A stretch of DNA of 64,000 bases from Holophagae bacterium (GTDB lineage Bacteria > Acidobacteriota > Holophagae > Acanthopleuribacterales > Acanthopleuribacteraceae): assembly GCA_029263455.1 (NCBI GenBank), contig JAJCXM010000020.1, forward strand, positions 186,753 to 250,752, in the 5' to 3' direction. Of the stretch, positions 1 to 38,638 are shown one piece after another. A model generated the notes under the pieces. It saw only the letters and a list, made by a program, of their open reading frames with translations, had not been told where the DNA came from and did not search any database. The position numbers and the translations under genes are program-made. Numbering within the stretch: the stretch's first letter is position 1; every line of letters starts with the position of its first letter.

Positions 1-1679
1 ATGCCCAGCGGAATATCTGCGCCAAGCAGGTGTAAGACAGTAGGGAAGACATCCTGATAACTCGCCAACGATTGCGAAAACTGAGCCTGTTGTTGCATCA
101 CTTGTTCTTCTTGGCCCGGAAGCCAAATGATGAATGGCATGCGGTAGGCGCGCATGGAGGCCAGGTTGACGCCGGTCAACGCTTGCATTTGGGCATATTC
201 GTCTTGGATGCCGGGTCCGGCATGGTCGCCAAAGAAAACAAACATCGTGTTGTCGTGGACGGCGCTCATCTCGTCAAGGAAGCTCCCGAGTGCAGCATCA
301 ACGTAATGACAGATGTTGAGGTACTGCTGAATGTTTGGTGCGTCCTTGAGGCTAGCAAACGCATAAGGCTGAGGTGCATCGGGATAGGGATGGTGGCTGG
401 ATAAGCTAATGACATAGGCGAAGAAGCGATCATTGACGCTTAGTTCCTGAGCTGTCTGTCGCAAGACATCCAGGTCATTGGGCCCCATGCCGAGGGTGGC
501 GTGTTGCTTGTAGCGTTCCCTGAACCACATGTCCGTAAACCCCAATGCCGGATGGTTGGCTCTCCGGTTCCAAAAATCGGCGTCGTTGGCATGGATAGAA
601 ATGGTTTGATAGCCCAAGTCACGCAGTGTTTCCGGCAAGGCGACTAAATCAAGATTCTCCGGGTAACTTAATGCGGCCACGCTGCGGTTATCTGGTAATA
701 ATCCGGCCAATACGCCGAACTCTGCGTCGGATGTTCCGCCGAGCGCAATATCATCCAAGAAATAGTCGCTTGAAAGTGATTGGCGTCTAAGTCGGTTCAG
801 TACCGGAGTGATTTCGACGCCGTCAACCACTAGGTCGAACAAGAAGTACTGGAAAGCTTCGATGGAAACCATTACTAGGTTGCGATCATTGGCCACGCCA
901 TGTAGCGGGCTTGTTTGATCATTGAGCGACTTGATGTGTGTCATTAAATCTGTGGCAAAGCTCAACTCGCCAGGACTTATTTGGCGAGGTTTGTGGCTCC
1001 ATCTTTGCAAGCCTGAATGGGCGAAATAGTTGATCAGACCTAGGGTTAAGGCAAACTCGCGTGGCGAACTTTGGTGCGGCAGGATGAACCGTTCTTGCGA
1101 TTGAGGTTCTTCCATGTGAACGGGAATATCTTCAATGTTTGATAGGCGCCTCGCCAGCACGGACGATTGCAAGGCAATAGCAAAAAAGAGGCAGGCAAAT
1201 ACCCAATCAACTTTGCGAAAACTGAGTCTGTTCTTTGGTGACCGGATGCTGAGTGTTTTGTGTCCGATGATGGCCGCGCCGATAATAATCACGGGAGCGA
1301 TCATTGCGGACCAGCCTAGTTCGTGGAAGAAACTGTCACGTACTTGCCAACCCTGACCAAAGAGCGCGAGGCTCTTCCAACCAAGAAAGGTTGAGAAAAA
1401 GCGAAAGTAGATCTGATTGGCGGTTAAGAAGGCGGACACAAGTAAGCCAAGAAAGGCATAAGACCACCAGCGCAAACGTGAGGGTATAAGTAAAACGATG
1501 AAGGCAGTGCCGCAGGGCAGCCAAAGTCGCCATGCCTCGCCCAACCACAACCATCCTCGTTGTTGGCGAAAGAGTTCAAGCAATGTTTGTCTGAAATCAT
1601 GTGGAGCTTGCGAACTAGCCCAAGCCATGATCTGCGACTCTTGGGCGTACAGAACGATCACCAACAAGCACATAAGCAT
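1..1679 (-). CDS. LTA-synthase/sulfatase-family (alkaline-phosphatase superfamily) membrane transferase, MdoB/LtaS-like; 3' end truncated by window start
   Basis: My manual minus-strand translation runs from position 3 up to a stop at 1773-1775 without interruption. The N-terminal third is multi-TM ('AMIAPVIIIGAAIIGH', 'LGLLVSAFLTANQIYF'). The C-terminal domain has sulfatase/LtaS hallmarks ('HANDADFWNR', 'YVISLSSHHPYP', 'NICHYVDAALGSFLDEM', 'NTMFVFFGDHAGPG'). It is absent from the ORF track only because it has no in-window stop. The start codon is uncertain: the first ATG after the stop is at 1677-1679, and a GTG at 1701-1703 is an alternative. Confidence 0.7.
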   Translation of the reverse strand, partial: MLMCLLVIVLYAQESQIMAWASSQAPHDFRQTLLELFRQQRGWLWLGEAWRLWLPCGTAFIVLLIPSRLRWWSYAFLGLLVSAFLTANQIYFRFFSTFLGWKSLALFGQGWQVRDSFFHELGWSAMIAPVIIIGAAIIGHKTLSIRSPKNRLSFRKVDWVFACLFFAIALQSSVLARRLSNIEDIPVHMEEPQSQERFILPHQSSPREFALTLGLINYFAHSGLQRWSHKPRQISPGELSFATDLMTHIKSLNDQTSPLHGVANDRNLVMVSIEAFQYFLFDLVVDGVEITPVLNRLRRQSLSSDYFLDDIALGGTSDAEFGVLAGLLPDNRSVAALSYPENLDLVALPETLRDLGYQTISIHANDADFWNRRANHPALGFTDMWFRERYKQHATLGMGPNDLDVLRQTAQELSVNDRFFAYVISLSSHHPYPDAPQPYAFASLKDAPNIQQYLNICHYVDAALGSFLDEMSAVHDNTMFVFFGDHAGPGIQDEYAQMQALTGVNLASMRAYRMPFIIWLPGQEEQVMQQQAQFSQSLASYQDVFPTVLHLLGADIPLG

Positions 1680-9777: not shown

Positions 9778-10527
9778 ATGTTTCGGATATTATGTGTTGT
9801 GCTAGGCGTTTTGGGTCTGTTTGCAGGTGAAGGTGATGGACCGAAATTCTTTTCGGTTTACCAAGAACAAGTGAAGCCCAGTATGGTGGGTGCCTATGAA
9901 GAGGGTGCTAAAGCGATGATCGCTGTGTTAAAGGAGAAAACGGATCGTTCACCCTACGTGCGTTTCAATACGATATCGAATGATAAGTTCTTGTATACGT
10001 ATGTCACGCCGATCGAAAACTTTGCGGCGTTAGATTCGATGCGTTCAGCCTGGGACGAAACCTTCATGAGCTTGCCCCCAGAAATGCAGGGCAAAATGAT
10101 GGAATCCATGGAAACGGTTGATCACGTCAACACGTTTGTGGTGGGTCTGCGCCCCGAACTCTCGTATTCGCCCGAGAACATGAAGGTTTCCCCAGTTACC
10201 GCTAAATTCTTTCATTACAGCTTTTATTACGTCCTACCAGGCAAGGAACAGGCTTGGGAAGCGGTTGCCAAGGGTTTTAAGGACCTAATGGCCGAAAAGA
10301 AAATGGATGTCGGATTCTCGGTCTATCAGAAGTTTACCGGAGAGGATTTACCGGCCTATGCCGTTATTCACTTTGGCAATACGCAAACTGAGATCATGCA
10401 GTACTTCGAGTCATTCATGCAAACGGCTGGTGAGAAAGGGCAAAAGCTAGCTATGGAGGGTGTTTTGGCCACCCGCAAACACGAAACGATTTTTGGTATG
10501 GCACGTCCGGACCTGAGTTTGGAATAG
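9778..10527 (+). CDS. Secreted hypothetical protein
   Basis: 249-aa ORF with a GGAG-type RBS ('aaggagtaactATG') and a signal peptide ('[19 protein letters not shown]'). No recognisable domain. Confidence 0.5.
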
Positions 10528-25628: not shown

Positions 25629-28600
25629 CTATTTGATGCTTTGAAGGATTTTGGTGGCGTAGTCTGAAGCCTTCTGTAAGGCGTCAAAAACCGATAGCCA
25701 CTTCAAGCCGTTCATGTCGGCCTTCTCAACCTTCACTTGAAGTTTTAAAGAATGACCGCCGTTCTTGATGCCCTTGGCAGAGAAACTGACTGGATAAATC
25801 CGCCGATTCAAACTCCTCAACTGTTTGATTAATTGCTCACTTTCTTGTTCAAGGAGTTGGCCCAGGTCTACTTCGTAACTGAGTTGTGTGCCTCGGGCAT
25901 TTAGATCGACAGGTACACCTTTATGGCGTCGAATTTCAAAATGTGAACCTCCCAGCTTCTTGACGTTGAATCCGTGTCTTTCGAGGAATCCTGAAGGAAG
26001 CCCTGTTTCTTTATCGACGACGAATTCGCTGTCTTCCTGAGGAGCCAATTGGCGAACCAGGTTCAACAGTTCTTGCCACTGGGGTTCTGACCATTGAGAT
26101 TCTATTTGCTTGGGGAATTCGGGGGCGGGCTTTTGTAGTGCCCTAACACCCACGCGCAGCGCTTTGCCAATCCGCTCCAAACCTTCTTGGAAGAGCACCA
26201 TCTGAGTCAACATCTGAGCAACGGAATCATTTTCGCCGCTTCCACGGAACATCGCATTGCGCGCGTAATCTTTCTTGATGTCCTGCCAACGTTTCACTTG
26301 TTCATCACTCTGCCAGCCCATCAACTCACGAAACTTCAGCATGTTTGACTCAGTCCCTTTTGCCAGGGTCTGGGCTTCGTTTTCGTAGTGGTCGAGGAGA
26401 ATAGCGTCAAGTTCGGCGTCATCGGTGATGGCGAGAACTTTTTCGGAAATTTTGTTCATGTTGCGATAGGAACCTTGGAGTTTGAAGGCTGGTTCCGTGC
26501 GGTACTCGTCGGCCTGAGCAGCACTTTCCATGTAGGCACTATTCACTTTCAACAAACATTCACGCACATAGATTAGCTTTCTGGCGACGCGAACGGCGTC
26601 TTCAACCAGGGTCGAAGCATAGTCACCAGACACTTTTGATGGGTCGAACTCGTCTCGCCCTTCGGCCACATCCAATAGGTGATGGATATCTTGTGGGTAG
26701 CTTCTGGCGATTTGGGCGAGCGTTTGGTTTGAAGTCATACAGTTCTCGACATAGCTGCGTTTGAAGGCATCAAATTCACCGCCGATGACGTCGCCCAAGT
26801 TATATGTGTCGGCGCGATTGGCGAGCATATCTGGTATCTGGAATCTAGCCCCGCTTTCTGTGTAAGGGTTTCCGGCCATGACGACACACACTTTTCGACC
26901 TCGCAAGTCATAAGACACCGATTCGCCTTTCCACACACCTTCAATGCGTCGTTGGGCATCACACAGTGAAATGAATTTTTGTAGTAACTCAGGGTTGCAG
27001 TGTTGAATGTCGTCTAGGTAGATCATGACATTGTCGCCAAGCTGAAATGCTAGGTTCAGTTTCTCGATTTCCTCGCGTGCAGAAGCGTGAGGGGCTTCCG
27101 CAGGGTCAAGTGACGTAGCCGCATGGCCAATCGATGGTCCATTTATCTTCACAAACACGAGTCCTAGGCGATCCGCGATGTATTCAATGAGTGTCGTTTT
27201 ACCGTATCCTGGAGGTGAGACAAGCAATAGTAGACCCATAAGATCTGTGCGTTTTTGGTCGCCGGAAGCACCAATCTGCTTGGCAAGGTTGTCACCGACC
27301 ATTGGTAAATAGACGGTATCAATTAGTCTGTTACGGACAAATGAGGTGAGCACTCGCGGTCTAAACCGGTCTAGTTTTAGCTGGTTCTGCCACTGACTGA
27401 TAATCTCCTTTTTACGTTGTTGGAAGCGATTGAATAGGTCGTTTATTCGGCCACAATGGTCACGTAATTGCGCGACTAGCTGACGGTAGCCAGTGCTAAG
27501 TACGCCTGCTTGCAAAGTTGAATGATTTCCCGCTAGTCCGCTTACTTCAAACCGTTCGCTGGTGTGATTAGGGATCCAGCTCTCGATCGGAGACAAGAGC
27601 ATGGCCGCAACTTCGTCTCTTAGTGGTTCATGTACGTCAAATCGGTTCAGCCAACCAAGGCACAACTCCCATTTAGTGACTTGCTGATTGGCTAGCGAAG
27701 AAACCGATTTCAGGAAAGCTTCTCCACGGCCTTGATTCTTGAGTGCGAGCTTAAAATTCAAAGCCGCGTCAAAGGCTGCTTGAGAAACCGAAGCGAACGA
27801 TTGATGCAAAAGTGCCCGACCCAGGAATTGAGCGGCCTCCTCAATGGCGCCAACAAAGCTTTGACAGTCCACCAAAGCTTCGTGACACTGTTGTAGAAAG
27901 TAGGCAGGAATACCCTTTGTCGGCTGCAAACGCAAAGCTTGAAAAGCGGCACTTGATTGCAGCAATTCTTGCCTATCTTCATCTTTGACCAAAAAGTGCC
28001 AGGCATAACAGACTCGACCTCGAGTTTCAGGTGAAAAGACCAAGCTACCCAAATCTTGTTTGCACTGCCAAAGGGCGGACGCAATTTTCGCAGCGTCTTG
28101 GTCGTGGACGCCTTTAACGTAGCCAGAAAGCGCGTGATCTTTTAGATACTGATCTACGAGTTTGGGCCAGTCAGGTTCGGTTGCTTGGGCATTGGCTGTC
28201 AAGACTTGATGCGCTAAGACGCAACCGGCGTACAGGCTTTCCGATTCAATAGCGCTTTCTTGTTGCCAGACTTCTTGAAAGTCAATGAGTTGCTGGTCCT
28301 CAATCTGTTCAAAGAATTGGGTGCCGGTAACCTGAACGCCCCATTTCTTTTGAACCTGAACGAGACTCACATCAAGGGCAAATGATTGCGTACTGAATGT
28401 GTGTTTACCGAGTCGAATGCTGTTATCGGCGTTGTAAAGGTCGCGTTTATCGCGCCATTGCCTCAGCGCGTCGTTGCGGGTCGCTTTGAAGCGCGCGTCT
28501 ATCTCCTCGGCACGTACTTCATCACCGAATGCTCTTAACTTGTCGACCAAACTGTGTAGTTTTTCGACCATCAGATCTGAAGCCAAAAAAGTATTTATTT

Positions 28601-30974
28601 CTTCCTCGGATTGGATCGATTCGAGCCGTCTTTTGATGCCTTGCACTATTCTTTCGCTAGCCTGAAAAACGCCCTGCACTTGCTGGTTGCGTTTTTCCAA
28701 TAAGCCGAAACGTCGATTTTCAAATGCGGTTATCAACTCTTCGCGCCGTTCCGCGAGAATGACTAAAAAACGAGTGCTGTCAGCAAACCGTGTTTCCATT
28801 TCCTCGAGATGCATGATCAAACGATTTAGGTTTTGGTCACAGCTTTCGGGGTTATCGGCGGCTTCGATGAGATGGGTCAGATTCTGTTGGAATAGATTGA
28901 GTTGAGCGGCAAAAGCTACTTGGTTTTCGCTTTCGGAAAATGCTTGAAGGCTTTGCTTGAGGCGAGCCTGAAAGTGGTTGAGCTTCTGGAAAAAGAGCGT
29001 GAGATGTTCGAGGATGGCACTTATTTGAGTGGCGTCCTCGACTTCAATGCGGTTGAGGATATCGAGCAGTAACTCAAGATCGGCGGTAAGTTGGTAACCG
29101 CGCTTTTCCAATTCGCGGCCTTCAGCGGCTTTGTTGATGTTGGTGAGCTCTTGGTCCAGATCATTGAGTTGATTGGCGTAAGGGTCAAGCGCCGAATCGC
29201 TGAGCAAGAAGGTAACGAGTAGACTTGTTGCTTCCTGAATTGCATGGGTTGCCTTTTCATTCAATCCAGCCAAATGTTCGAGATCCATATAAGGCTTTTC
29301 GCGATGACTTTCAATGGCACCCTTTGCCTGCCTCAAGTCGGTTAATACCGACAAGAAAGCGCTTACGTCTGGCATCGGAGCGCGCGTCCTGTCGATGGCG
29401 CCTTTTACAAGTTTCTCTAACGAGCCTGAATGTCGTTTGGCATCTCGTTGGTAAGCCAGCACCTTTTCATAGACTTCGATGGCTTGCTGCGATGTCGACC
29501 GTATTTCTTTGAGAGGACCTATTAAATCAATCTCGGACTGTTGTATCCAATGAAAGGCTTCTAACGTTTGGTCGACCATCTTGACGAGGTCACGAAAAAA
29601 GGATTCATGCAGTTGGGCGGAGCGAACGACCTTTATTAGTTCGTTTGATTCGCCCAGGAATCGGACCAGGTCGCGGTTGCCAATTTTGGTTATCATCGGA
29701 TCGTCGCCCGATTGGGCTACGGCAGGTTGACGGTTGTAAGGCGTATTCCAAATTTGGATCGCATGGTGTTTTTGCGGTTCGTCGTCAGCGCGAAAGAAAA
29801 GTAACTGGCCATCTTCAAATAGTGAATAGCCATGGCATTGAATGGGATTGCCCATCTCGGCCGCAATGAGGTTGTAAGACATCAATACGTAGACGCCGAT
29901 TTGTGGCTGAAAGAACACATACAGGTAGTCTTCTCCGTTTGGTGCTGATATCTTTCGCTCGAACTTTAAGCCTCGTATTTGGTTCTCGAAAACGCGCAAA
30001 TTGCCATTGATAGAATAGGTGCCACTGGAAAACACAAGTCCGGAATCGCTAGGCAAAAGTAGACAGCAATCCGCCATTCCATCTGCCCTATGCACCGTCT
30101 TGAGCTTTTCGTTGAATATGAAATAACGATCTGACTTTTCCTGGAATGGTCTGATCTTGAGAAAGATGAGGTGCCCAAAAATGGCGTAGCGAATGTCTGC
30201 GTCATCTAAGGTCTGGTCATGTTGTTCTACCGGCTCGGTGTAGATTCCGGCACCCGATTCCGTGTTGTCTTCCACTTTGATCGTCAGGTCGCCGCCGATT
30301 GTTTCGACGAAAACCCGATCCTCAATGGATACGTGTGGGTGAAGTCCACTACTATGGGAATCACGCGTTGTTCGGGTCCACTGAAAATCGAATTGATTGG
30401 GATAGACGAACTCGTGATCGCTGCGGTTATCCACATATTTCAGTTGGTCGCCTTCGTGAACCCATTTAAATGTTTTGAGTTCTTGGCCTTCCAGACTTAC
30501 CTGAAAAACCATAAACAGGTAGGGTCCCACTATTGAAAACTTATAGAAGCGGGTGTGTTTGTAGTATTTGTAAAGGCTCTTGAAGTCGGCTTGAAAACGA
30601 TCTGACGCAATTAAATTCAAGTCATCTTGAAGCATAATGCTGCCATCCCAGCGATGGATGGAGAAGACGTCTTCAAGATTCGTTTCTGTCTTTAGACCAA
30701 ATCTGACGTTGAAGCCAAACAGGAAGTGATGCCCAAGAGCCACCATATCGATAGGCACACAATTGTGCTCAGATATGATGTGCTCTGTTGTCACTAATTG
30801 GCTTGGCTGACTGCCAAACGTTGATTTACGTCGTGTATTAAGCTCAGTCAACCCTACATTGAATTGATCGCTCTGTTGAGTTAGCCGTTTCCGTATGGTC
30901 TCGAAAGTGGACTGGTCCCATGCTGAACCGGTTGGACTTTGTGCGGGCTCCATGCAATATCCTTCTTCACACAA
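25629..30974 (-). CDS. Giant (1781 aa) protein with a single MoxR/midasin-type AAA+ ATPase domain, long central coiled-coil region and a beta-rich N-terminal domain
   Basis: Walker A 'LLLVSPPGYGKTTLIEYIA', Walker B 'VMIYLDDIQ', sensor-1-like 'VCVVMAGNPYTESGARFQIPDMLANRADTYNL' (compare MoxR 'ATQNP...LPEAQLDRF'). These lie at about aa 1250-1440. Before them is roughly 500 aa of heptad-rich, Q/E/L-rich sequence. No VWA or nuclease motif seen. It is the last gene of the NfeD-flotillin operon. Confidence 0.75.
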   Translation of the reverse strand: MCEEGYCMEPAQSPTGSAWDQSTFETIRKRLTQQSDQFNVGLTELNTRRKSTFGSQPSQLVTTEHIISEHNCVPIDMVALGHHFLFGFNVRFGLKTETNLEDVFSIHRWDGSIMLQDDLNLIASDRFQADFKSLYKYYKHTRFYKFSIVGPYLFMVFQVSLEGQELKTFKWVHEGDQLKYVDNRSDHEFVYPNQFDFQWTRTTRDSHSSGLHPHVSIEDRVFVETIGGDLTIKVEDNTESGAGIYTEPVEQHDQTLDDADIRYAIFGHLIFLKIRPFQEKSDRYFIFNEKLKTVHRADGMADCCLLLPSDSGLVFSSGTYSINGNLRVFENQIRGLKFERKISAPNGEDYLYVFFQPQIGVYVLMSYNLIAAEMGNPIQCHGYSLFEDGQLLFFRADDEPQKHHAIQIWNTPYNRQPAVAQSGDDPMITKIGNRDLVRFLGESNELIKVVRSAQLHESFFRDLVKMVDQTLEAFHWIQQSEIDLIGPLKEIRSTSQQAIEVYEKVLAYQRDAKRHSGSLEKLVKGAIDRTRAPMPDVSAFLSVLTDLRQAKGAIESHREKPYMDLEHLAGLNEKATHAIQEATSLLVTFLLSDSALDPYANQLNDLDQELTNINKAAEGRELEKRGYQLTADLELLLDILNRIEVEDATQISAILEHLTLFFQKLNHFQARLKQSLQAFSESENQVAFAAQLNLFQQNLTHLIEAADNPESCDQNLNRLIMHLEEMETRFADSTRFLVILAERREELITAFENRRFGLLEKRNQQVQGVFQASERIVQGIKRRLESIQSEEEINTFLASDLMVEKLHSLVDKLRAFGDEVRAEEIDARFKATRNDALRQWRDKRDLYNADNSIRLGKHTFSTQSFALDVSLVQVQKKWGVQVTGTQFFEQIEDQQLIDFQEVWQQESAIESESLYAGCVLAHQVLTANAQATEPDWPKLVDQYLKDHALSGYVKGVHDQDAAKIASALWQCKQDLGSLVFSPETRGRVCYAWHFLVKDEDRQELLQSSAAFQALRLQPTKGIPAYFLQQCHEALVDCQSFVGAIEEAAQFLGRALLHQSFASVSQAAFDAALNFKLALKNQGRGEAFLKSVSSLANQQVTKWELCLGWLNRFDVHEPLRDEVAAMLLSPIESWIPNHTSERFEVSGLAGNHSTLQAGVLSTGYRQLVAQLRDHCGRINDLFNRFQQRKKEIISQWQNQLKLDRFRPRVLTSFVRNRLIDTVYLPMVGDNLAKQIGASGDQKRTDLMGLLLLVSPPGYGKTTLIEYIADRLGLVFVKINGPSIGHAATSLDPAEAPHASAREEIEKLNLAFQLGDNVMIYLDDIQHCNPELLQKFISLCDAQRRIEGVWKGESVSYDLRGRKVCVVMAGNPYTESGARFQIPDMLANRADTYNLGDVIGGEFDAFKRSYVENCMTSNQTLAQIARSYPQDIHHLLDVAEGRDEFDPSKVSGDYASTLVEDAVRVARKLIYVRECLLKVNSAYMESAAQADEYRTEPAFKLQGSYRNMNKISEKVLAITDDAELDAILLDHYENEAQTLAKGTESNMLKFRELMGWQSDEQVKRWQDIKKDYARNAMFRGSGENDSVAQMLTQMVLFQEGLERIGKALRVGVRALQKPAPEFPKQIESQWSEPQWQELLNLVRQLAPQEDSEFVVDKETGLPSGFLERHGFNVKKLGGSHFEIRRHKGVPVDLNARGTQLSYEVDLGQLLEQESEQLIKQLRSLNRRIYPVSFSAKGIKNGGHSLKLQVKVEKADMNGLKWLSVFDALQKASDYATKILQSIK

Positions 30975-31012
30975 TCAAACGTACTGGGGCGCCAGGGCGC
31001 CCCTTGGATGGA

Positions 31013-32989
31013 TTAGTCAAGCCACTTGGCGGCGCGCTCATTTTCCAGATTCTTGGATTCGGTCAGTTTCAAGAGTTGCGTCAATTCGGCCTTGATATCG
31101 GCAGAGGGAGCGGACTCCGATAAGCGCCACATCAGTTTGGCTAAGGACAGGTCACGCACGTCACTGGCCTGGACACCAAGTTGGTCGAGAATTTGTCGCA
31201 GTCTACTTCCGAATTGACCTTTATCGCCCGTTAGCAGGGCATCTTTTGCATCAGTTAGGAGTTGCGAGTTATCGACCATCCTATCAATGTAACGACCTTG
31301 CGAGATACCAGATACGATCTTGTCGAAGAAGGTTGTCTCGCCACCCACAATTTCGATTTTAGCGGCGCGCAATGCTTCGGATAGTACCTGTGCTTGAGCA
31401 TCGGCAATATCCTTCTGAATTCGAATTTGAGCCAGATCAATATCTCTTTCCTTGTTGAGTTTGAGCTTGAACTCTTCATGGTCTTTACCTACGCCGTCTA
31501 ATAACTTCATGCTTTCGGCTTTCTGACGTAGTCCTTGAGCTTCAGCTGAAGCCTTACGCTCGATCACGTTCGCTTCGGCCGTGCCTTCCTGTTCGAGCGC
31601 GTGTGCTCGCGCTTCCATGACACGTACTTCACTAAGTCCCATGGTCGCTTCTTCTACCGCTCGCGCGTCGGCCAGTGTTTTCATGGCCTCAGCCTTTTTG
31701 GAGGCGGCTTTGAATTCGGCTTCAGCCTCGATTAGCGTTTGTGCGGCCTGTAATTCGCTGGCCTGTTTGCCAGCCTCGGCAGCCCTAACCCGACTGACCA
31801 GTGATTCTTGTGCCTGCATTTCGGCGTGCGTCACAGCCACATTCTTGGTGCGGTTTGCAGCAGCTAGAGCTTGGACATCTTTGATGAGCTCTTGTTCTTC
31901 AACCACAGCTTTTTCAACGATGACACGCTCTCGAATTAGGTCTTGTATGTTCTTACGCTCCTGTTCGATGGCTCTTGTTTTTTCGAATTCAGCTAGCGCG
32001 ACGATGCGTTCGCGTTCATTGACTTCAAGGAGGCGATCCTTTTCAACCCGTTCCCGTTCAACTACCTGGGTTCGTTCTTTGCTCATTTGAGCGACGATCA
32101 CCTGGCGATCTTTATTCTCTTCTGCTACCTGTACTTCTTCATCCGTGATAATTCTTGCCCGTTCGGATTTCAACCTTTCCTCTTGGGTAACCTTGAGTGT
32201 TTCAGCACTTTCTCTAGCTTGGGCCGTCTCAACTTCACGCTTTTTGCGTGCTTCTGTCTCCGCCAACTGGCGTTTGAGTTCAAGGATGGCTTCGCGCGCT
32301 TCCACATCTTGTTTGGTGATCGTCTTTTCTCGTTCACGGTCGATTTGATTGGCAAGTACCTTTTGCTGAGCCGTGATTTCCGTGATCTTCTTGATGCCTT
32401 CGGAATCAAGGATATTGTCTGGATTCAAATGCTCCAGTGGCGTTTGCTCTAGAAAATCAATCGCGCAATCATCCAATACGAAGCCGTTGAGATCAGTCCC
32501 GATGATCTGAAGAATTTCCGTCTTAAATCGGTCTCGCGCCTCGTATAACTCAACAAAATCGAATTGCTTACCCACTGTCTTTAGGGCTTCTGAGAATTTG
32601 GCATCGAAGAGTTCAACTAATGACTGCTGTTTGGAGGCTCGTTCGCAACCGAGGCTTTGAGCGACTTTTAATGCGTCTTCTGAGGTTTTATTTACGCGTA
32701 CAAAAAATGCGACCTTAATATCGGCTCGCATGTTGTCCATACACACCAATCCCTCTTTACCTACGCGCTGAATCTCCACACGTTTTACGCTGAGATCCAG
32801 CACCTCAGCACGATGTAAAACTGGGAAAACGAAGGTGCCTGAAAAAGTAACCTTGGATCCTCCCATCCCGTTTCGAATCAAAGCTTTACCTTGATCTACC
32901 TTGACGTAACATTTGGTTACCATGGCAAGAATGCCCATGCCCATAACCAATATGATGCCAACAACTATCAATAACATTGCTTCTGGCAT
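31013..32989 (-). CDS. Flotillin / SPFH (band-7) family protein, YqiK/FloT-like, with extended coiled-coil tail
   Basis: N-terminal TM ('LLIVVGIILVMGMGILAMV'). SPFH core 'VKVDQGKALIRNG....KVTFSGTFVFPVLHRAEVLDLSVKRVEI...MRADIKVAFFVRV'. Long EA/ER-rich coiled coil. Only 18 nt from the upstream NfeD-like gene. Confidence 0.8.
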   Translation of the reverse strand: MPEAMLLIVVGIILVMGMGILAMVTKCYVKVDQGKALIRNGMGGSKVTFSGTFVFPVLHRAEVLDLSVKRVEIQRVGKEGLVCMDNMRADIKVAFFVRVNKTSEDALKVAQSLGCERASKQQSLVELFDAKFSEALKTVGKQFDFVELYEARDRFKTEILQIIGTDLNGFVLDDCAIDFLEQTPLEHLNPDNILDSEGIKKITEITAQQKVLANQIDREREKTITKQDVEAREAILELKRQLAETEARKKREVETAQARESAETLKVTQEERLKSERARIITDEEVQVAEENKDRQVIVAQMSKERTQVVERERVEKDRLLEVNERERIVALAEFEKTRAIEQERKNIQDLIRERVIVEKAVVEEQELIKDVQALAAANRTKNVAVTHAEMQAQESLVSRVRAAEAGKQASELQAAQTLIEAEAEFKAASKKAEAMKTLADARAVEEATMGLSEVRVMEARAHALEQEGTAEANVIERKASAEAQGLRQKAESMKLLDGVGKDHEEFKLKLNKERDIDLAQIRIQKDIADAQAQVLSEALRAAKIEIVGGETTFFDKIVSGISQGRYIDRMVDNSQLLTDAKDALLTGDKGQFGSRLRQILDQLGVQASDVRDLSLAKLMWRLSESAPSADIKAELTQLLKLTESKNLENERAAKWLD

Positions 32990-33006
32990 TTTTCCCCTCC
33001 TACGAC

Positions 33007-33651
33007 TTAATCTATCGGCTCTACGATATAACTGTGTGGACCATCAACCGCAATAATCCTAACCAGCTCGCCTTTCGCGACTTTAATGCCGGGCCGCGTT
33101 CGAATATTGATGCGCACGAATGAATCTCGTGATTTTGCTTCGGCCTGACCTAGTCGCTGGTCGTCAGCTGCGCTTAATACGGTACCTGTTAGTCCAATTA
33201 CATTTTTTAGCTGGTGTTCTTCAGACATCATGCGACCAAAAACAGCCCTCAATGGCCAAAGCAGTAATCGCGTGGTGATAAAACACAGCAACATGTTTGC
33301 AAGCAGAACTAATGCTGCCATTTTCCAACTGTCGGTTTGAAGCCAGTAGTTGGACATGATGACGGCGATCCACATAAGCAGTACAAAAGCGCTTGCTATG
33401 ACTGTGACTGGTACTTGACCGACATATAAGAAACTCAATAGCCCGTGTACTAATCCGCCACCTGTCTCGAGTTCAGTTTCCAATTCCGTTTCAACGTCAA
33501 GATCAGCTTCCGCCACGTCAATGTCAAAATCAAGCACGTCCAGATCCAGAACACCAATGATGACACTCAACCAATAGAAAACAGCCAAGCCCAACAACAT
33601 GGTGAAAACGACGTTGTATGGTTGTATGGAGAACTTGAGTAGTTCGATCAT
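33007..33651 (-). CDS. NfeD/YqiJ-like membrane protein (flotillin partner)
   Basis: 214 aa with TM helices, an acidic loop ('DVLDFDIDVAEADLDVETELETELE'), and a C-terminal OB-fold-like soluble domain ('IGLTGTVLSAADD...SFVRINIRTRPGIKVAKGELVRIIAVDGPHSYIVEP') typical of NfeD-family proteins encoded next to flotillins. Confidence 0.65.
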   Translation of the reverse strand: MIELLKFSIQPYNVVFTMLLGLAVFYWLSVIIGVLDLDVLDFDIDVAEADLDVETELETELETGGGLVHGLLSFLYVGQVPVTVIASAFVLLMWIAVIMSNYWLQTDSWKMAALVLLANMLLCFITTRLLLWPLRAVFGRMMSEEHQLKNVIGLTGTVLSAADDQRLGQAEAKSRDSFVRINIRTRPGIKVAKGELVRIIAVDGPHSYIVEPID

Positions 33652-33843
33652 GGGAACCTCCCCCTTGGCTCATTACCTGTATGCGTATGCTAGCGCATTC
33701 TATTTAAAGTGTGGAAATGGGCGGCTAATACAGTCGCGACCGAACCACAACTGAGTCCGCTTGGACTCATCATGTTCTGCTTGTTAATGTCGCTGATAAC
33801 CCCCCTCGTGACGATCAGCATTTTGACGCTATTTAATATCTAT

Positions 33844-34428
33844 TTACGTATTTTCTGGTAATTTTGTTTTGTTATCTCGTTGCGACCATTCGCGTTCAAG
33901 CCGCAGCGCCGCTTCCACGGCAGTCGTCAATGCGTCAGTAGCTTGCGTTAATGGCCGACCGTCCCATTGGAAATAACGGGGTGCGTCGACGGCAACCAGC
34001 TCGAGGGCTTGAATGACTTGTTGGGTGCGGTCCAGTAATTCGTCTCGCTGGGCTAGATTTTGTTCGATGCGTTGGTTTACTAAGGGAGAGTCGCTCTTTA
34101 TTTGACTTGACTGGTGAAGTTGCTGGGCTTGTAGGATAAGGCGTTTCCCTTCGCTAAACGCTTGCTGTGACTTGTTCAGCCAATCGTTGACCAAATCGCT
34201 GGGTCGCCTTTGTCGTTCTTTTTCTAGAATACGTAGAGCCTGATCTAGTGCTGAATCAAGTTGCGCAGAGGCCGTTTCTGCGCGACGCCAAATCGTCGTC
34301 GGACTTTCAACTGATTGGGATACTTCGTCTTTGTGACTTTGTCGACGAGCTCGTAAGATCCACCAAACCATGGCGCTGATGGCAGCGACATACAAGAACG
34401 CGATGCCTAGCCATTCCAACACGAGCAT
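33844..34428 (-). CDS. Hypothetical membrane-anchored coiled-coil protein
   Basis: 194 aa. N-terminal TM ('LEWLGIAFLYVAAISAMVWWIL'), then a Q/R/E/L-rich helical region. Same strand as the flotillin operon, between the Hsp70-like and NfeD-like genes. Confidence 0.45.
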   Translation of the reverse strand: MLVLEWLGIAFLYVAAISAMVWWILRARRQSHKDEVSQSVESPTTIWRRAETASAQLDSALDQALRILEKERQRRPSDLVNDWLNKSQQAFSEGKRLILQAQQLHQSSQIKSDSPLVNQRIEQNLAQRDELLDRTQQVIQALELVAVDAPRYFQWDGRPLTQATDALTTAVEAALRLEREWSQRDNKTKLPENT

Positions 34429-34548
34429 CTCCTAACAGGGCTGTGGTGGCGCGCGAACTTTTTGTTTTTGTAGCTGCCAACAAAGAGTGATTCTACGTAG
34501 ATGTTTATGCTACAGGTCCCTTTCGAATCAAGATTCTTGAGATTACTA

Positions 34549-36225
34549 TTACCTTAATTGTAAGACTGGGTGACGATCTAACAGTAGGTTTTTGTTCCGT
34601 AAGTCGCGCACGGTGGCGATTAGCCAGCGTTCTTCATCGATGCCGAACTGGATTTCGAGACGCGGATTCTTGTCCGATGGCCAGTGCGGTGGGTTCAAAT
34701 CGCCTAGCGTCGGGTTTTCTTCATTTAGAGCCACCACAATGCGGTCATCGCTATGACGCAATAAATGGGCCTGACCATCAGCGTCCCAGGCGACTTCGTT
34801 TTGGGTCCCAAGTTTACGGCCGATTTCGCAGATGACCAGTTTAAATGTTTCCTCTGGTTCGCCATGAGCACATGTTGGGATGAACCTGCCAGTCCAGTGA
34901 TTGTGCAAGGTTGGGTACTTCGTTCCGCCTCTAATCACGAGCTGGTGCTGGGCTTGATGGGTCTTCATGTCCCAGGCTCGAATGGCGTAGTCGTGGAATA
35001 TCTGGTCCTGAGCGGGTAGTGAGCCAGAGCTAAATACAGCTGCGCCCAAGGTAACCGCGTGAAATGGCTGCCATGCCTTTATGTTCGCCCGTCCGAAACG
35101 CTGTTCTACACGTGAATAGACCTCTGGCAAGAGGGTGGAGCCGCCGACCAGTAGGACCTGTTCATAAAGGGTGTGATTACGTTGCGAGGCGTTGATCACT
35201 TGATCTATCGCATGATCAAGGCGTTGATAAAATTGCTTAGCCGCGAGTAGACCAATCAAATCAGCGCGCGCCATGCTAAATTCACGCGGTTTCTTTCGCG
35301 CTGTTCGGCGAATTAGGCTTGGCGGTATTTCGAGTGAAAAAGGGACAGGGTCCTGGAAGAAAAGACGCTCCTTTATTTGACAACATTCTTCAAGAACGAG
35401 TTTCATCCACCAGTTCGTCAGGTGATCAGAGGCAACGTTGGGGTCAGGTAAACCGAGCTGTTCGCACACAAATTGGGCTATCCAATTGTCCACGTCATTG
35501 CCGCCCAGTTGCTCACCCCACTTTCCTAACACCTGAGCATGCCCTTCTTTCATGCTCTCGTAGTTGATGGACATCGCTACCAGATCCAATGTGCCAGCGC
35601 CAAAATCGATGACCAAGACATGCGTGTCTTTTTGTATTTGCGCACCATATCCAAGCGCCGCGGCAACCGGCTCGTCTACAAAGCGAGCGGTCATTCCAAG
35701 GGAAGCTGCGATCTGTTTGAGTGCACCGCGATAGGATTCGTAGCAATCGACTGGCGTGCCAAAAACGATTTCGTTGGGCCGCCAACCCAAGGTTCGTGTG
35801 GCGCTCGCAAGTAACTCACGAACGTATAGCTGGGTTGTCTTATAGACAGCGGTTTGTGTCACCTTTCCCCTTGCGCATAGATCTAATAATTCGCTTTTGA
35901 ATCCAATGCGATAGTTTTTTTGCCGCTGATGGGCGTCGGCGTTAGCTGCCTCTAAGCCAATCTTTGCCCTCGATCCGATAAAACGAGTGCGTTCAATCCA
36001 AGGCCATGAGCCTAACCTGCTTAACCAGTTTGGAGCCTGATCTATTAATACAGCAGAGGGGATGGTTGCCGCGTCATCGATGGTGACATCGCTAAAGCTA
36101 CTCTTTTGCCGTGAAATGCCTGGCAGGCGGATCAGATCGGGCAGTTCACGTTGGCTATCCCAAATGGAGAGTCCCGTGTTGGTGGTGCCCAAATCCAAGG
36201 CAATAGTGCGTTTTGACAAGATCAC
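34549..36225 (-). CDS. Hsp70-family (actin-fold) ATPase, nucleotide-binding domain only, no canonical DnaK substrate-binding domain
   Basis: Phosphate-1 'IALDLGTTNTGLSIWD', phosphate-2 'VLVIDFGAGTLDLVAM' and the adenosine motif 'VLLVGGSTLLPEV' match DnaK NBD signatures. The C-terminal roughly 170 aa are unrelated to the DnaK SBD. Confidence 0.75.
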   Translation of the reverse strand: MILSKRTIALDLGTTNTGLSIWDSQRELPDLIRLPGISRQKSSFSDVTIDDAATIPSAVLIDQAPNWLSRLGSWPWIERTRFIGSRAKIGLEAANADAHQRQKNYRIGFKSELLDLCARGKVTQTAVYKTTQLYVRELLASATRTLGWRPNEIVFGTPVDCYESYRGALKQIAASLGMTARFVDEPVAAALGYGAQIQKDTHVLVIDFGAGTLDLVAMSINYESMKEGHAQVLGKWGEQLGGNDVDNWIAQFVCEQLGLPDPNVASDHLTNWWMKLVLEECCQIKERLFFQDPVPFSLEIPPSLIRRTARKKPREFSMARADLIGLLAAKQFYQRLDHAIDQVINASQRNHTLYEQVLLVGGSTLLPEVYSRVEQRFGRANIKAWQPFHAVTLGAAVFSSGSLPAQDQIFHDYAIRAWDMKTHQAQHQLVIRGGTKYPTLHNHWTGRFIPTCAHGEPEETFKLVICEIGRKLGTQNEVAWDADGQAHLLRHSDDRIVVALNEENPTLGDLNPPHWPSDKNPRLEIQFGIDEERWLIATVRDLRNKNLLLDRHPVLQLR

Positions 36226-36400: not shown

Positions 36401-38638
36401 ATGCGTAATCAATTGAGTTCTTATATTTTATGGCTGATAGCAATCAGTGCAGGCGTCTGTTATGGACAGCAAATCGAACTAAAGGTAGGCTCGCTGACGG
36501 TTGATCCTGCTTCCGCGACTGTGGCTTCGTGTGTACAGATCCCCATTCTAATCAATGACCCGATGAGTGGTCGTGATTTACGTGATATGACCTTCACCGT
36601 CGAATTTTCAGGCGATACCGGCATTATTGATGGTGGTATCGCGGTCAATATGGTCGTCGCCAATGCTTTTTCAGGCGCACCCCAAACTGGCTTATCTAAT
36701 CCCGGTACGGATTTAGATAATATTAACCCGGCGCCAGGTCCCGGCAGTCCCTCTTGCTCGGCTATTTTTAATCAGGCGACAGAGGGTAGTGGCGCTCCCA
36801 TAGACTTTTTGCAGGGGACCGGCGCCGCCAGTTGGTTTATTAATAACAATCAGGGTGCGATAGGTCGCAAGCAAGGATTTGTGATCGATCCATTTGCAAA
36901 TGGATCGATTTCGAGCAGCGTGGCTGGAGATCAACTTATTGCCGTGCTTGAAATACCCATTATCGCTAACCCGGGCGTCGCGCAGCTTCTAATTACGGCA
37001 ACGCCCAATGGGGTCGTTACAGATGCCAACGTATTTACCTGGGATGATGGCACCGACAGCGACGGCAAGCGTGTCCAAATTTCGGAATCCTTATCCTTGC
37101 CAGTCGCTCCTGCAGTGGTTAACTTTTTTGATGTTGTTGATTGCGCAGGCGCAACAGCCAGCCCGGACCCGGCCACCTGGGCAGACCCCAACGATGGCGG
37201 GCTTGGCGGCGTTTTGTTCTTTTCCTTTCCTGGCACAAGCCTCGTCGATCATGTCCATTTAACGGGAAGCGGCGGTCTAGATCTGACGATCGGTTCCGGT
37301 GGAGCTACAACGGCGGTTGCGATCGATACAACAACTGATAGCTCTCCAGATCCCGCAACAAACCCGAACACTTATACAGCTGTATATAATGTCGAATTTC
37401 CACCGGCTTCAGGTACCTTCGTATCGGGAGCGCCTTGCAATATCAATGTGCCCTGGGCGGCGCCTTCGTGCACGGTGGCCTTTACCAACACGCCAGTCGT
37501 GGGTATGAGTACCGATATTAATGTGACGCTCGTAAATGCGCAGTGGGATGGGGCTCGTTACGGGGTGCTTGATGCCAACGGTATGATGGTTGATCTAGTG
37601 GTTCCGTCAGCAGGCGCGGGCACCAACACATTACAATTCAATGGTGTTTTCCCCATTGCGGCGGTCGCACCTGGTGATGCAGGTATTTACCAAGTTACGG
37701 GTTCCGGACCTGGTGGGCCATTTAACTGTTCGGTGAATTTGGTGCTTGACCCGCCCGTCAATATGACTAACTGCGCAACCATCACAACGGCCGTCATTGG
37801 TGGATCGGTTGATATTGATCTCCAAGGCAACGCGGGAACCATCGATTTTACCGTTATCTATAACGGCACCACATATGACAATCTCCCGGCCGGCGTATTT
37901 TCATTACCAAATATAAGTAGCAATGCACCTACTATTGAAATCAGAGCCAACGGCTTTGATGCCATGGGTAATCCTATTTTTGACTCGATCATATGTAACT
38001 TGAACTTTGCTGCAGCCACTTGTTTTGCAACTCAAAACCCAGATAGCACAGTGACGCCAGTCGATGTTGGCACGGTCATTACGTTGACTTTGACGACGAC
38101 GGGTGCCGTTAGTGCGACAGCTAATGGTGTTCCGATGTCGGTTGTCGCTGGCACCCCCGGCGTGACTGACATGGTGACGTGGGAAGCAACTCATGTGGCC
38201 GTTGCAGATACGATCATTAGTGGTGTCGCGACTAATCCCGATGCTATGACGGTTCAATGTGACTGGGCCATCGACATCAACTGCATTGATCCCTCCATCG
38301 TTTCGGTCGCCCAGGTAGGTGACGTAGGTGTCACAATTGCAGGTACATTCGGTTGTACTTACACCGTCAGAATCACGCAGCACAATAGTGGCACCAGCAG
38401 CGATTATGACGTGTCGATTGATACGTTAATCGATCCGCTCCTTAACACGGGAACGGGAACTTTGAATGTCGTCGTACCGCCTGACTCTTGGATCGAAGTG
38501 GGACAGCAAGGATTCCCAACTGCCACTGCAATGGTACATACCGTGCCTACCTTGGGGATTTGGGCATTGATCGGCTTTGTGATCCTGCTTATGGCATCAG
38601 CTTTGTACTTCATGAGGCGCCCGTCTCTTTCGAAGTAA
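36401..38638 (+). CDS. Large Thr/Gly/Ala-rich secreted surface protein with C-terminal IPTL-CTERM-like sorting signal
   Basis: Start trimmed to the ATG at 36401, which gives a signal peptide ('MRNQLSSYILWLIAISAGVCYGQQ') after an AAGGGGA RBS; the track ORF starts at 36320. The C-terminus 'VPTLGIWALIGFVILLMASALYFMRRPSLSK' is a motif, TM helix and basic tail in the pattern of IPTL-CTERM/PEP-CTERM-class sorting signals. The body is low-complexity and T/G/A/V-rich, so beta-rich and adhesin-like. Confidence 0.6.
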   Translation: MRNQLSSYILWLIAISAGVCYGQQIELKVGSLTVDPASATVASCVQIPILINDPMSGRDLRDMTFTVEFSGDTGIIDGGIAVNMVVANAFSGAPQTGLSNPGTDLDNINPAPGPGSPSCSAIFNQATEGSGAPIDFLQGTGAASWFINNNQGAIGRKQGFVIDPFANGSISSSVAGDQLIAVLEIPIIANPGVAQLLITATPNGVVTDANVFTWDDGTDSDGKRVQISESLSLPVAPAVVNFFDVVDCAGATASPDPATWADPNDGGLGGVLFFSFPGTSLVDHVHLTGSGGLDLTIGSGGATTAVAIDTTTDSSPDPATNPNTYTAVYNVEFPPASGTFVSGAPCNINVPWAAPSCTVAFTNTPVVGMSTDINVTLVNAQWDGARYGVLDANGMMVDLVVPSAGAGTNTLQFNGVFPIAAVAPGDAGIYQVTGSGPGGPFNCSVNLVLDPPVNMTNCATITTAVIGGSVDIDLQGNAGTIDFTVIYNGTTYDNLPAGVFSLPNISSNAPTIEIRANGFDAMGNPIFDSIICNLNFAAATCFATQNPDSTVTPVDVGTVITLTLTTTGAVSATANGVPMSVVAGTPGVTDMVTWEATHVAVADTIISGVATNPDAMTVQCDWAIDINCIDPSIVSVAQVGDVGVTIAGTFGCTYTVRITQHNSGTSSDYDVSIDTLIDPLLNTGTGTLNVVVPPDSWIEVGQQGFPTATAMVHTVPTLGIWALIGFVILLMASALYFMRRPSLSK

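Follow-up and report, generated by a model that had tools for sequence, protein, structure and literature searches.

A giant DUF3686-family AAA+ ATPase encoded with a YqiK-type flotillin in a Holophagae bacterium: synteny, domain anatomy and a proposed role at flotillin assemblies

Introduction

The mechanism of bacterial flotillins is still debated, and a 64,000-nucleotide stretch of a Holophagae bacterium genome (contig JAJCXM010000020.1, positions 186,753 to 250,752; hereafter the window) raises the question of whether one flotillin subfamily works with an ATPase of its own. On the minus strand of the window, a flotillin gene directly precedes an open reading frame (ORF) of 1781 codons whose product, hereafter the giant, carries a single AAA+ module. 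A preliminary description of the locus had taken these two genes and the three upstream of them for a five-gene operon encoding a candidate undescribed membrane-microdomain machine. Judged by synteny, the unit is a four-gene cassette (p194, a YqiJ-like gene, a YqiK-type flotillin gene and the giant gene), of which the last three are universally conserved. In hundreds of species, the gene of one flotillin subfamily is followed immediately by that of a very large, highly conserved ATPase, and in several phyla the unit is joined to PspA operons; we therefore regard the giant as a strong candidate for the missing energy-consuming part of a flotillin/PspA membrane-maintenance system.

The discovery of the operon is not new, since it was reported by comparative genomics in 2020 and 2024. 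Ravi et al. (mSystems 2024, PMC11237479; bioRxiv 2020) described CesT/Tir-PspA operons, with Dokdonia donghaensis as the example organism, that contain a "β-propeller + coiled-coil + AAA+ ATPase", a flotillin and YqiJ/YuaF, and noted a wider distribution for abbreviated operons limited to the flotillin, YqiJ/YuaF and in some cases the ATPase. Their account of this operon takes up one paragraph and contains neither a structure nor a clade assignment, and neither statistics nor an experiment. Popp et al. 2022 (PMC9239133) reported PspA-flotillin-NfeD neighbourhoods in Acidobacteriota. Our literature search found no paper naming DUF3686, PF12458 or "DNA repair ATPase" together with flotillin, and no experimental work on the giant. 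The claim that the machine was undescribed is therefore withdrawn: the trio is already in PMC11237479, and the giant belongs to a known family routinely encoded beside flotillins, which is the finding that the preliminary description had itself named as fatal to that claim. What is added here is a corrected gene content (three plus one genes, not five), quantitative synteny and domain models. What makes the locus of interest is the biology of a mislabelled giant ATPase linked to flotillins, and not the novelty of finding it.

Results

Conservation of the gene neighbourhood

Relatives of the giant were collected by scanning one genome per species, which gave a match in at least 595 species, and 80 loci were retrieved. 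They span Planctomycetota, Verrucomicrobiota, Bacteroidota, Desulfobacterota, Clostridia, Acidobacteriota, Kiritimatiellota and Omnitrophota (at least eight phyla); most of the sampled loci come from PVC-group bacteria and Bacteroidota, and Acidobacteriota are also represented. Sixty-five loci had at least 2.5 kb of upstream DNA and were testable. In 61 of these 65, the giant gene is immediately preceded by a flotillin gene of the same strand, and a YqiJ-like gene comes next upstream in 56 of the 61. Gene order thus supports the reading of the giant as a partner dedicated to the NfeD-flotillin pair. All-against-all clustering of the ORFs of the loci returned no other broadly conserved neighbour. 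The core of the system is therefore the trio of YqiJ-like protein, flotillin and giant. The genes of the window that are discussed below are the following.

25629-30974, minus strand: giant AAA+ ATPase of the DUF3686 / "DNA repair ATPase" family (ORF from a TTG at 30974; probable coding sequence 25629..30953)
30986..31003, minus strand: GC-rich 7-bp hairpin between the flotillin and giant cistrons, predicted by RNAfold
31013..32989, minus strand: YqiK-type flotillin, 658 residues, assigned by hhalign to YqiK and by Band_7 matches of its orthologues
33007..33651, minus strand: YqiJ/YuaF-type (NfeD2) polytopic membrane protein, 214 residues, assigned by hhalign to YqiJ and by YqiJ_N matches of its orthologues
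33844..34428, minus strand: p194, lineage-specific fourth gene, member of an orphan family
34549..36225, minus strand: Hsp70/actin-fold ATPase, 556-558 residues, a neighbour only, outside the module

The five minus-strand ORFs and the gaps between them are as first described: 38 nucleotides (nt) between flotillin and giant, 17 between NfeD-like protein and flotillin, 192 between p194 and NfeD-like protein, and 120 between the Hsp70-like gene and p194. The flotillin-to-giant gap is 38-59 nt depending on the start of the giant. This start is probably the ATG at 30953, giving 1774 residues, because a GAAGGA ribosome-binding site lies upstream of it and the identical database protein (P0001) has 1774 residues. 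Similarly, p194 probably starts at the GTG at 34422, giving 192 residues. Hydrophobic segments are absent from the giant and from the Hsp70-like protein; the flotillin and p194 each have one, at the N-terminus, and the NfeD-like protein has three or four.

The fourth gene, p194, is confined to this lineage. A profile search among 5.8 billion proteins gave four sequences, all encoded directly upstream of the trio. The protein carries one transmembrane helix, at its N-terminus, and its cytoplasmic part is largely helical. Conserved motifs stand in the N-terminal transmembrane region (LEWLGI..LY) and at the C-terminus (FFQWDGRP.TQATDAL), and the protein matches no Pfam family. The possibility that p194 is a disguised PspA was rejected at an hhalign probability of 0.07%. 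Its gene occupies the position that PspA has in the Bacteroidota operons.

We then considered whether all five genes, including that of the Hsp70-like ATPase, make up one machine, as the preliminary description had it. The genes share a strand with gaps of at most 192 nt, a chaperone-like CesT/Tir gene takes an upstream position of the operon in other phyla, and the sole sigma-70-like minus-strand site close to the cluster precedes the Hsp70-like gene (36304-36277), which would be compatible with co-transcription. However, the promoter scan yielded fewer sites than shuffled sequence and hence provides no evidence; overall, promoter and terminator sites were fewer, or no more numerous, than in shuffled sequence, and these scans were uninformative. 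Moreover, the Hsp70-like gene is upstream of the trio in none of the 80 loci and, of four related genomes, just one has it beside the cassette. In the metagenome-assembled genome (MAG) GCA_020439745.1, the flanks of the gene are preserved although the cassette is absent from the site: the backbone reads T2SSE (85% identity), further on Hsp70 (61% identity), and then Tag (60% identity), AAA_33, NnrS and Pkinase, and the site between Hsp70 and Tag, where the window has the cassette, contains an IS200-type Y1 transposase gene (locus L084, 8656-9462). The cassette of this genome is found about 65 kb away on the same contig (L092). In two further relatives, L083 and L002, the cassette is present with no Hsp70-like gene beside it. 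The cassette site thus differs among the four related Acidobacteria-like genomes, the cassette moving as a unit while Hsp70 stays with the backbone. Since the Hsp70-like gene keeps its flanks without the cassette, and the cassette occurs without the Hsp70-like gene, the latter is a chance neighbour, as is Tag. Synteny therefore largely refutes a five-gene machine, which we consider highly improbable, and it reduces the proposed five-gene operon to three genes universally and four in this lineage, with the Hsp70-like gene adjacent in this genome only.

The Hsp70-like protein belongs to a widespread family of its own, with at least 1,412 homologues of about 560 residues in unrelated contexts. 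Its Pfam HSP70 match is limited to nucleotide-binding positions 118-372 of 599, and it scores about 90 bits against the NCBIfam DnaK and HscA models, whose cut-offs exceed 600. It has no canonical DnaK substrate-binding domain, in agreement with the preliminary description.

The giant belongs to the DUF3686 family

The giant had been described as fitting no named family. Profile searches place it in one, with 551.9 bits against PF12458 (DUF3686, entitled "ATPase involved in DNA repair"; cut-off 25, E 1.1e-165, residues 42-475) and 57.1 bits against PF25472 (DUF7902; cut-off 26, E 2e-15). Its AAA+ module also matches in profile searches: Pfam AAA (PF00004) scored 31.4 bits (cut-off 21.2) and AAA_5 scored 26.2 bits, just over its cut-off. 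A search with the protein yielded 3,746 clusters of homologues, of which the best 120 are almost all 1,600-1,950 residues long and 40-66% identical over 89-100% of the query, and many of the homologues listed bear the NCBI name "DNA repair ATPase". On the strength of PF12458, PF25472, a C-terminal AAA match and near-full-length collinearity, the giant is by sequence a member of the DUF3686 / "DNA repair ATPase" family, named in both Pfam and NCBI. When the N-terminal domain was searched alone, 624 clusters at 50% identity were found among 1.84 billion representatives, and the beta domain is always N-terminal in full-length members, which are proteins of about 1,600-1,900 residues. Every full-length member has the same layout, and this is therefore a single-architecture family.

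Two AlphaFold2 models of the giant (m897f5756f47d and m072d39bb93bc) were built from 63-sequence alignments, each with a mean predicted local distance difference test (pLDDT) score of 83. In the numbering of the 1781-residue ORF, they give the following predicted anatomy.

Residues ~18-53, minus strand: long N-terminal helix (AlphaFold2 model)
Residues ~59-410, 29745..30800, minus strand: all-beta, beta-propeller-like domain of about 27 strands (m897f5756f47d, pLDDT 83)
Residues ~426-846, 28437..29699, minus strand: helical stalk with helices of 20-58 residues, including DUF7902
Residues ~852-1127, 27594..28421, minus strand: small beta unit followed by a helical domain, between stalk and AAA+ module (secondary structure of m897f5756f47d)
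Residues ~1215-1560, 26295..27332, minus strand: single AAA+ module (m072d39bb93bc, pLDDT 83; invariant motifs)
Residues ~1660-1781, 25632..25997, minus strand: variable C-terminal alpha/beta domain, strands and a terminal helix (model)

Conservation is uneven along the protein: identity across phyla is about 80% in the AAA core, 50-77% in the propeller, 27-47% in the stalk and about 20% at the C-terminus. Foldseek searches with the beta domain returned CyRPA, prolyl oligopeptidase, YncE, PON1, the clathrin N-terminal domain and IFT-A, at E values of 5e-6 to 1e-4.

The motifs first quoted for the AAA+ module ("SPPGYGKT", "IYLDD" and "MAGNP…IPDMLANRADTYNL") are present in the translation. Among 14 and 63 homologues, the Walker A (GYGKTT), Walker B (YLDD) and sensor-1 (AGNP) motifs are invariant, and so are an arginine in LANRAD and a sensor-2-like GSYRNMN. 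The Walker B motif is of the form hhhhDD and not hhhhDE (YLDDIQH, residues 1321-1327, window positions 26994-27014 on the minus strand), and both aspartates are invariant in the 63 homologues. A beta-hairpin is predicted ahead of the sensor-1 strand. As far as sequence and model can tell, the AAA+ fold is confirmed and the ATPase motifs look intact.

Could the giant be a DNA repair ATPase, as both database names state? Besides these names, weak RuvB-like matches would speak for such a function, together with two neighbouring genes, that of a DNA-3-methyladenine glycosylase (Tag), which adjoins here, and that of a LexA-family regulator beside the Bacteroidota versions. However, the RuvB similarity is confined to 43 aligned columns of the generic P-loop region, no DNA-binding or nuclease domain was detected in the giant, and its constant partners are two membrane proteins. 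Moreover, Tag is a backbone gene that stays by the Hsp70-like gene when the cassette is elsewhere, and our search found no paper in support of the name. A role in DNA repair thus seems scarcely credible to us. The name is most likely an annotation artefact, which probably arose from coiled-coil similarity to SbcC/Rad50-type entries.

The AAA+ module had been called MoxR/midasin-type, a label that closer comparison does not support. Foldseek placed NorQ/CbbQ first (E 1.4e-6 to 1.9e-6; template-modelling scores of about 0.55-0.60, normalised to target), with RuvB (2.3e-6) and Lon (3.2e-6) essentially level, and its neighbours also include FtsH, ClpX, Cdc48 and M. sedula Vps4. When a profile of the AAA core was aligned by hhalign to single E. 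coli sequences, the probability was 96% for RuvB, 93% for FtsH, 92% for ClpX, 89% for Lon and 20% for RavA, the worst of the set. These alignments are short and cover the P-loop region only (43 columns for RuvB); they suffice against a specific MoxR affinity and are too short for assigning a clade. No helix-2 hairpin was evident in the secondary-structure string of the AAA+ model, and neither the window cluster nor the recurrent families of the flanks include a gene for a VWA partner. The giant does resemble the MoxR family (RavA, CbbQ, NorQ) in its single AAA+ module, in the AAA_5 match over cut-off and in having NorQ/CbbQ as top Foldseek neighbours, whereas RavA is its weakest hhalign match and its locus has no VWA partner gene. 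In view of the hhalign ranking, the missing VWA partner, the higher score of PF00004 than of AAA_5 and the presence of one AAA module instead of the six plus MIDAS of midasin, membership of the MoxR/midasin group is not supported. From sequence and model together, the safest description of the giant is a divergent AAA+ protein carrying a pre-sensor-1 hairpin.

The flotillin and its YqiJ-like partner

The window flotillin has no Pfam, NCBIfam or PDB sequence match of its own. Its identity is settled because of the scan of its orthologues, 7 of 43 of which match Band_7 (best E 7e-14), and of the alignment of the orthologue profile to E. coli YqiK (hhalign probability 100%, E 2e-42, 29% identity over 405 columns, from residue 13). 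Against PDB, the same profile gave a weak coiled-coil match to QmcA and nothing else. The protein consists of an N-terminal anchor (residues 1-31, hydrophobic), a divergent SPFH domain, a long helical region rich in Glu, Lys, Arg and Ala, and a conserved C-terminal module. It has the anchor of the SPFH2 group and an NfeD2 neighbour, the YqiJ-like gene ending 17 nt upstream. The NfeD-like protein itself scores 18.2 bits against YqiJ_N, under the cut-off of 23, and 20 of its 45 orthologues match this family (best E 3.6e-8). Its profile aligns to E. coli YqiJ with a probability of 96.6% (E 5e-10) in an alignment that extends through the C-terminus, and it has no matches in PDB. The NfeD OB-fold (PF01957) is weak, with E 0.08 in the window protein and matches in 6 of 45 orthologues (best E 0.005). 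Through orthologues and through the alignments to YqiK and YqiJ, the flotillin and NfeD/YqiJ labels initially given to these genes are thus borne out.

SPFH2/NfeD2 pairs are known from Hinderhofer et al. 2009 (PMC2636767), who described E. coli YqiJ-YqiK and B. subtilis YuaF-FloT. The window pair has the same two-gene order and is homologous to both E. coli proteins. It differs from the E. coli locus, where yqiK is followed by sibD/ibsD and there is no third gene, and from the YqiK and FloT pairs in general, since the window flotillin belongs to a far more conserved subfamily, has another C-terminal module and is coupled to the giant. Indeed, giant-linked flotillins show a mean pairwise identity of 55% across phyla, yet 29% to YqiK, and residues 481-560 are 63% conserved across phyla. 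Over its last 219 residues, the window flotillin does not resemble the C-terminus of YqiK (hhalign probability below 1%), and none of the 43 orthologues matches the Pfam Flot domain PF15975 at E<=0.1. This C-terminal block appears to be specific to the subfamily and is a candidate docking site for the giant.

The place of the hairpin predicted between the flotillin and giant cistrons is also taken by a hairpin in L083 (~9955-9972) and L002 (~9912-9930), the closest two relatives, where its sequence differs; in L002, it is followed by a T-run. That position and structure are kept without the sequence suggests that the ATPase is held sub-stoichiometric to the flotillin. The hairpin may act as an attenuator, or as a protector or stabiliser of the mRNA end, that sets the flotillin:ATPase ratio. 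Across the loci, the flotillin-giant gap ranges from overlap up to about 1.6 kb. Small, selfish-looking genes occur in it in several loci; by eye, those in L012 (809-1255), L041 (9494-9937) and L046 (9290-9919) are Vsr-type-like, and those in L028 (9456-9908) and L072 (9505-9921) are GxxExxY-type-like.

Linkage to PspA and the question of defence

Two families, and no others, recur among 150 ORFs flanking the loci, namely PspA_IM30 (16 ORFs) and CesT_Tir_1 (12 ORFs). The full Bacteroidota form, with a LexA-like regulator, CesT/Tir, PspA, YqiJ, flotillin and giant, is present in 13-17 loci, and a Hymenobacter plasmid carries the order Tir chaperone-PspA-DUF1449-flotillin-giant. On pQBR103, a megaplasmid of Pseudomonas fluorescens SBW25 (L086, 84437-97641), a ten-gene same-strand cluster ends with the trio, in the order YjfI-PspA-rhomboid-DUF2491-DUF350-DUF1190-glutathionylspermidine synthase-YqiJ-like-SPFH-"DNA repair ATPase". 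The window has the same three proteins as the operon of Ravi et al., in the same order and with the same domain architecture of the giant, and differs from it in having neither CesT/Tir nor PspA and in carrying the orphan p194 (192 or 194 residues) just upstream of YqiJ. In gene content, the window locus is the abbreviated, PspA-less form of that operon. A divergent regulator with XRE-HTH and S24-peptidase-like parts stands ahead of the Bacteroidota operons (L005, 4456-5208, minus strand; L087, 3574-4359, minus strand; and 14 others); the one in L087 is annotated as LexA family, which suggests control by a self-cleaving repressor.

These flanks also bear on the idea, raised in the preliminary description, that the cassette is a membrane-associated defence system, acting against phage or by abortive infection through the membrane. 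SPFH and AAA+ proteins do occur in some defence systems, the position of the cassette varies in related genomes, the cassette is found on a few megaplasmids, and some flanking ORFs match the PADLOC entries SWIM_XIII, MzaA and mad2, once each. However, such singletons are the only PADLOC matches among the 150 flanking ORFs, which are dominated by housekeeping genes and by PspA and CesT. No significant PADLOC match was obtained for the five proteins of the window cluster (best E about 0.007 for the trio; 1.3e-5 for the Hsp70-like protein against PDC-M61B), and the giant family has no match in 50,697 phage records. It is present in 13 of 72,556 plasmid records, mostly megaplasmids or chromids. 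These searches thus gave no indication of a defence island or of descent from phage. In addition, an AAA core that is about 80% identical across phyla, in a family with a single architecture, is unlike fast-evolving defence genes. We consider a defence function improbable.

Discussion

Proposed mechanism

We propose that the giant works as a soluble oligomeric ATPase, docking on the YqiK-type flotillin/YqiJ membrane assembly and using ATP for the assembly, disassembly or reshaping of this scaffold, together with PspA where it is co-encoded, during membrane stress; we hold this proposal with about even confidence. The gene content, the synteny, the domain composition, the intact ATPase motifs and the linkage to PspA in other phyla are observed; oligomerisation, docking, the substrate and the role in stress are inferred. 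By analogy with what is established for SPFH proteins generally, the flotillin and the polytopic YqiJ-type NfeD protein would together build a large membrane-anchored oligomer, shaped as a ring or a cage, on the cytoplasmic side. The giant is predicted to be soluble, with a propeller-like head, a stalk of about 400 residues made of spectrin-like helical bundles, a helical domain and one intact AAA+ module, through which it may oligomerise as a ring. Docking would probably bring the propeller head to the subfamily-specific C-terminal module of the flotillin. ATP would then be spent on the flotillin scaffold, and on the PspA/ESCRT-III-like polymer where this is encoded, at sites of membrane damage, in a manner functionally akin to that of Vps4 on ESCRT-III or of FtsH inside HflK/C. 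The intercistronic hairpin would probably keep the ATPase below the flotillin in amount. The membrane-stress role is proposed because of the recurrent fusion to CesT-PspA operons, and the idea of an ATP-driven remodeller at flotillin assemblies, already voiced in the preliminary description, fits this fusion.

Several observations weigh against this proposal. Physical contact between giant and flotillin is deduced from gene order only, and 4 of the 65 testable loci have a giant without an adjacent flotillin. Mirror-tree correlations of 0.63-0.68 show co-inheritance, and not necessarily interaction. No PspA gene was found in the 64-kb window. The DD form of the Walker B motif may mean slow or regulated ATP hydrolysis, or a switch instead of a processive motor. 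Finally, the giant has none of the aromatic pore-loop motifs of threading unfoldases, the equivalent conserved loop being NGPxIGH.

A second possibility is client processing: membrane proteins that are damaged or unfolded would be held by the flotillin-NfeD cage, and the AAA+ ring of the giant would extract or unfold these clients instead of remodelling the scaffold, as in HflK/C-FtsH although without a protease. S. aureus FloA-NfeD stabilises unfolded proteins without ATP (PMC11222466), and an ATP-dependent partner would complement such an activity. Among the Foldseek neighbours of the AAA+ module are Lon, FtsH, ClpX and Cdc48, the hhalign probabilities for FtsH, ClpX and Lon are 89-93%, and the synteny supports this scheme exactly as it supports the scaffold-remodelling proposal. 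On the other side, the giant lacks a peptidase domain and the flanks have no recurrent one, the canonical aromatic-hydrophobic-Gly pore loop is missing and Walker B is DD, and a large propeller with a stalk would better suit an adaptor that binds a scaffold than a simple unfoldase. We therefore rank client processing second, because of the missing protease domain and pore loop, and judge it viable but rather unlikely.

A bolder possibility is that the giant is a self-contained bacterial coat and uncoating machine, in which a propeller head and a helical leg are fused to an AAA+ motor. Acting with the flotillin cage, and with PspA/ESCRT-III in genomes that encode it, the giant would bend, pinch or excise patches of damaged membrane in an endocytosis-like or vesicle-shedding repair, with p194 as a lineage-specific membrane receptor. 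We mention it because a propeller with a long helical leg is common to the clathrin heavy chain and IFT-A, both of which are Foldseek hits, and we regard it as a very long shot.

Comparison with known systems

Reshaping of a flotillin scaffold by the giant would have two well-known counterparts. In HflK/C-FtsH, as proposed here, an SPFH assembly is functionally coupled to an AAA+ ATPase at the inner membrane. However, FtsH is membrane-anchored and carries a zinc protease, whereas the giant is predicted to be soluble, has no protease and possesses a propeller and a long stalk, and its coupling to the flotillin is read from gene order only. The second counterpart is ESCRT-III/Vps4, a membrane-remodelling polymer with a dedicated AAA+ protein. 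PspA belongs to the ESCRT-III superfamily, and in Bacteroidota and Proteobacteria it is encoded in the same operon as the giant. The giant differs from Vps4 in having no MIT domain, in being about four times larger and in its predicted pre-sensor-1 hairpin, unlike the classical-clade Vps4; moreover, the window has no PspA. Tractable carriers of the system include Pseudomonas fluorescens SBW25 with pQBR103, Proteus mirabilis, Hymenobacter and flavobacteria.

Other genes of the window

Rfam and tRNA scans across the whole window returned no tRNA, rRNA or Rfam family. On the plus strand, a 745-residue ORF without a Pfam match on record (36401-38638) diverges from the Hsp70-like gene; in its place, the related MAG GCA_020439745.1 (L084) has a gene for 421 residues between T2SSE and Hsp70, on the strand of Hsp70. 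Among the neighbouring genes of the window are those of multihaem cytochromes, of TPR-containing Ser/Thr kinases and of NnrS, and several window genes have their nearest relatives in Acidobacteria MAGs.

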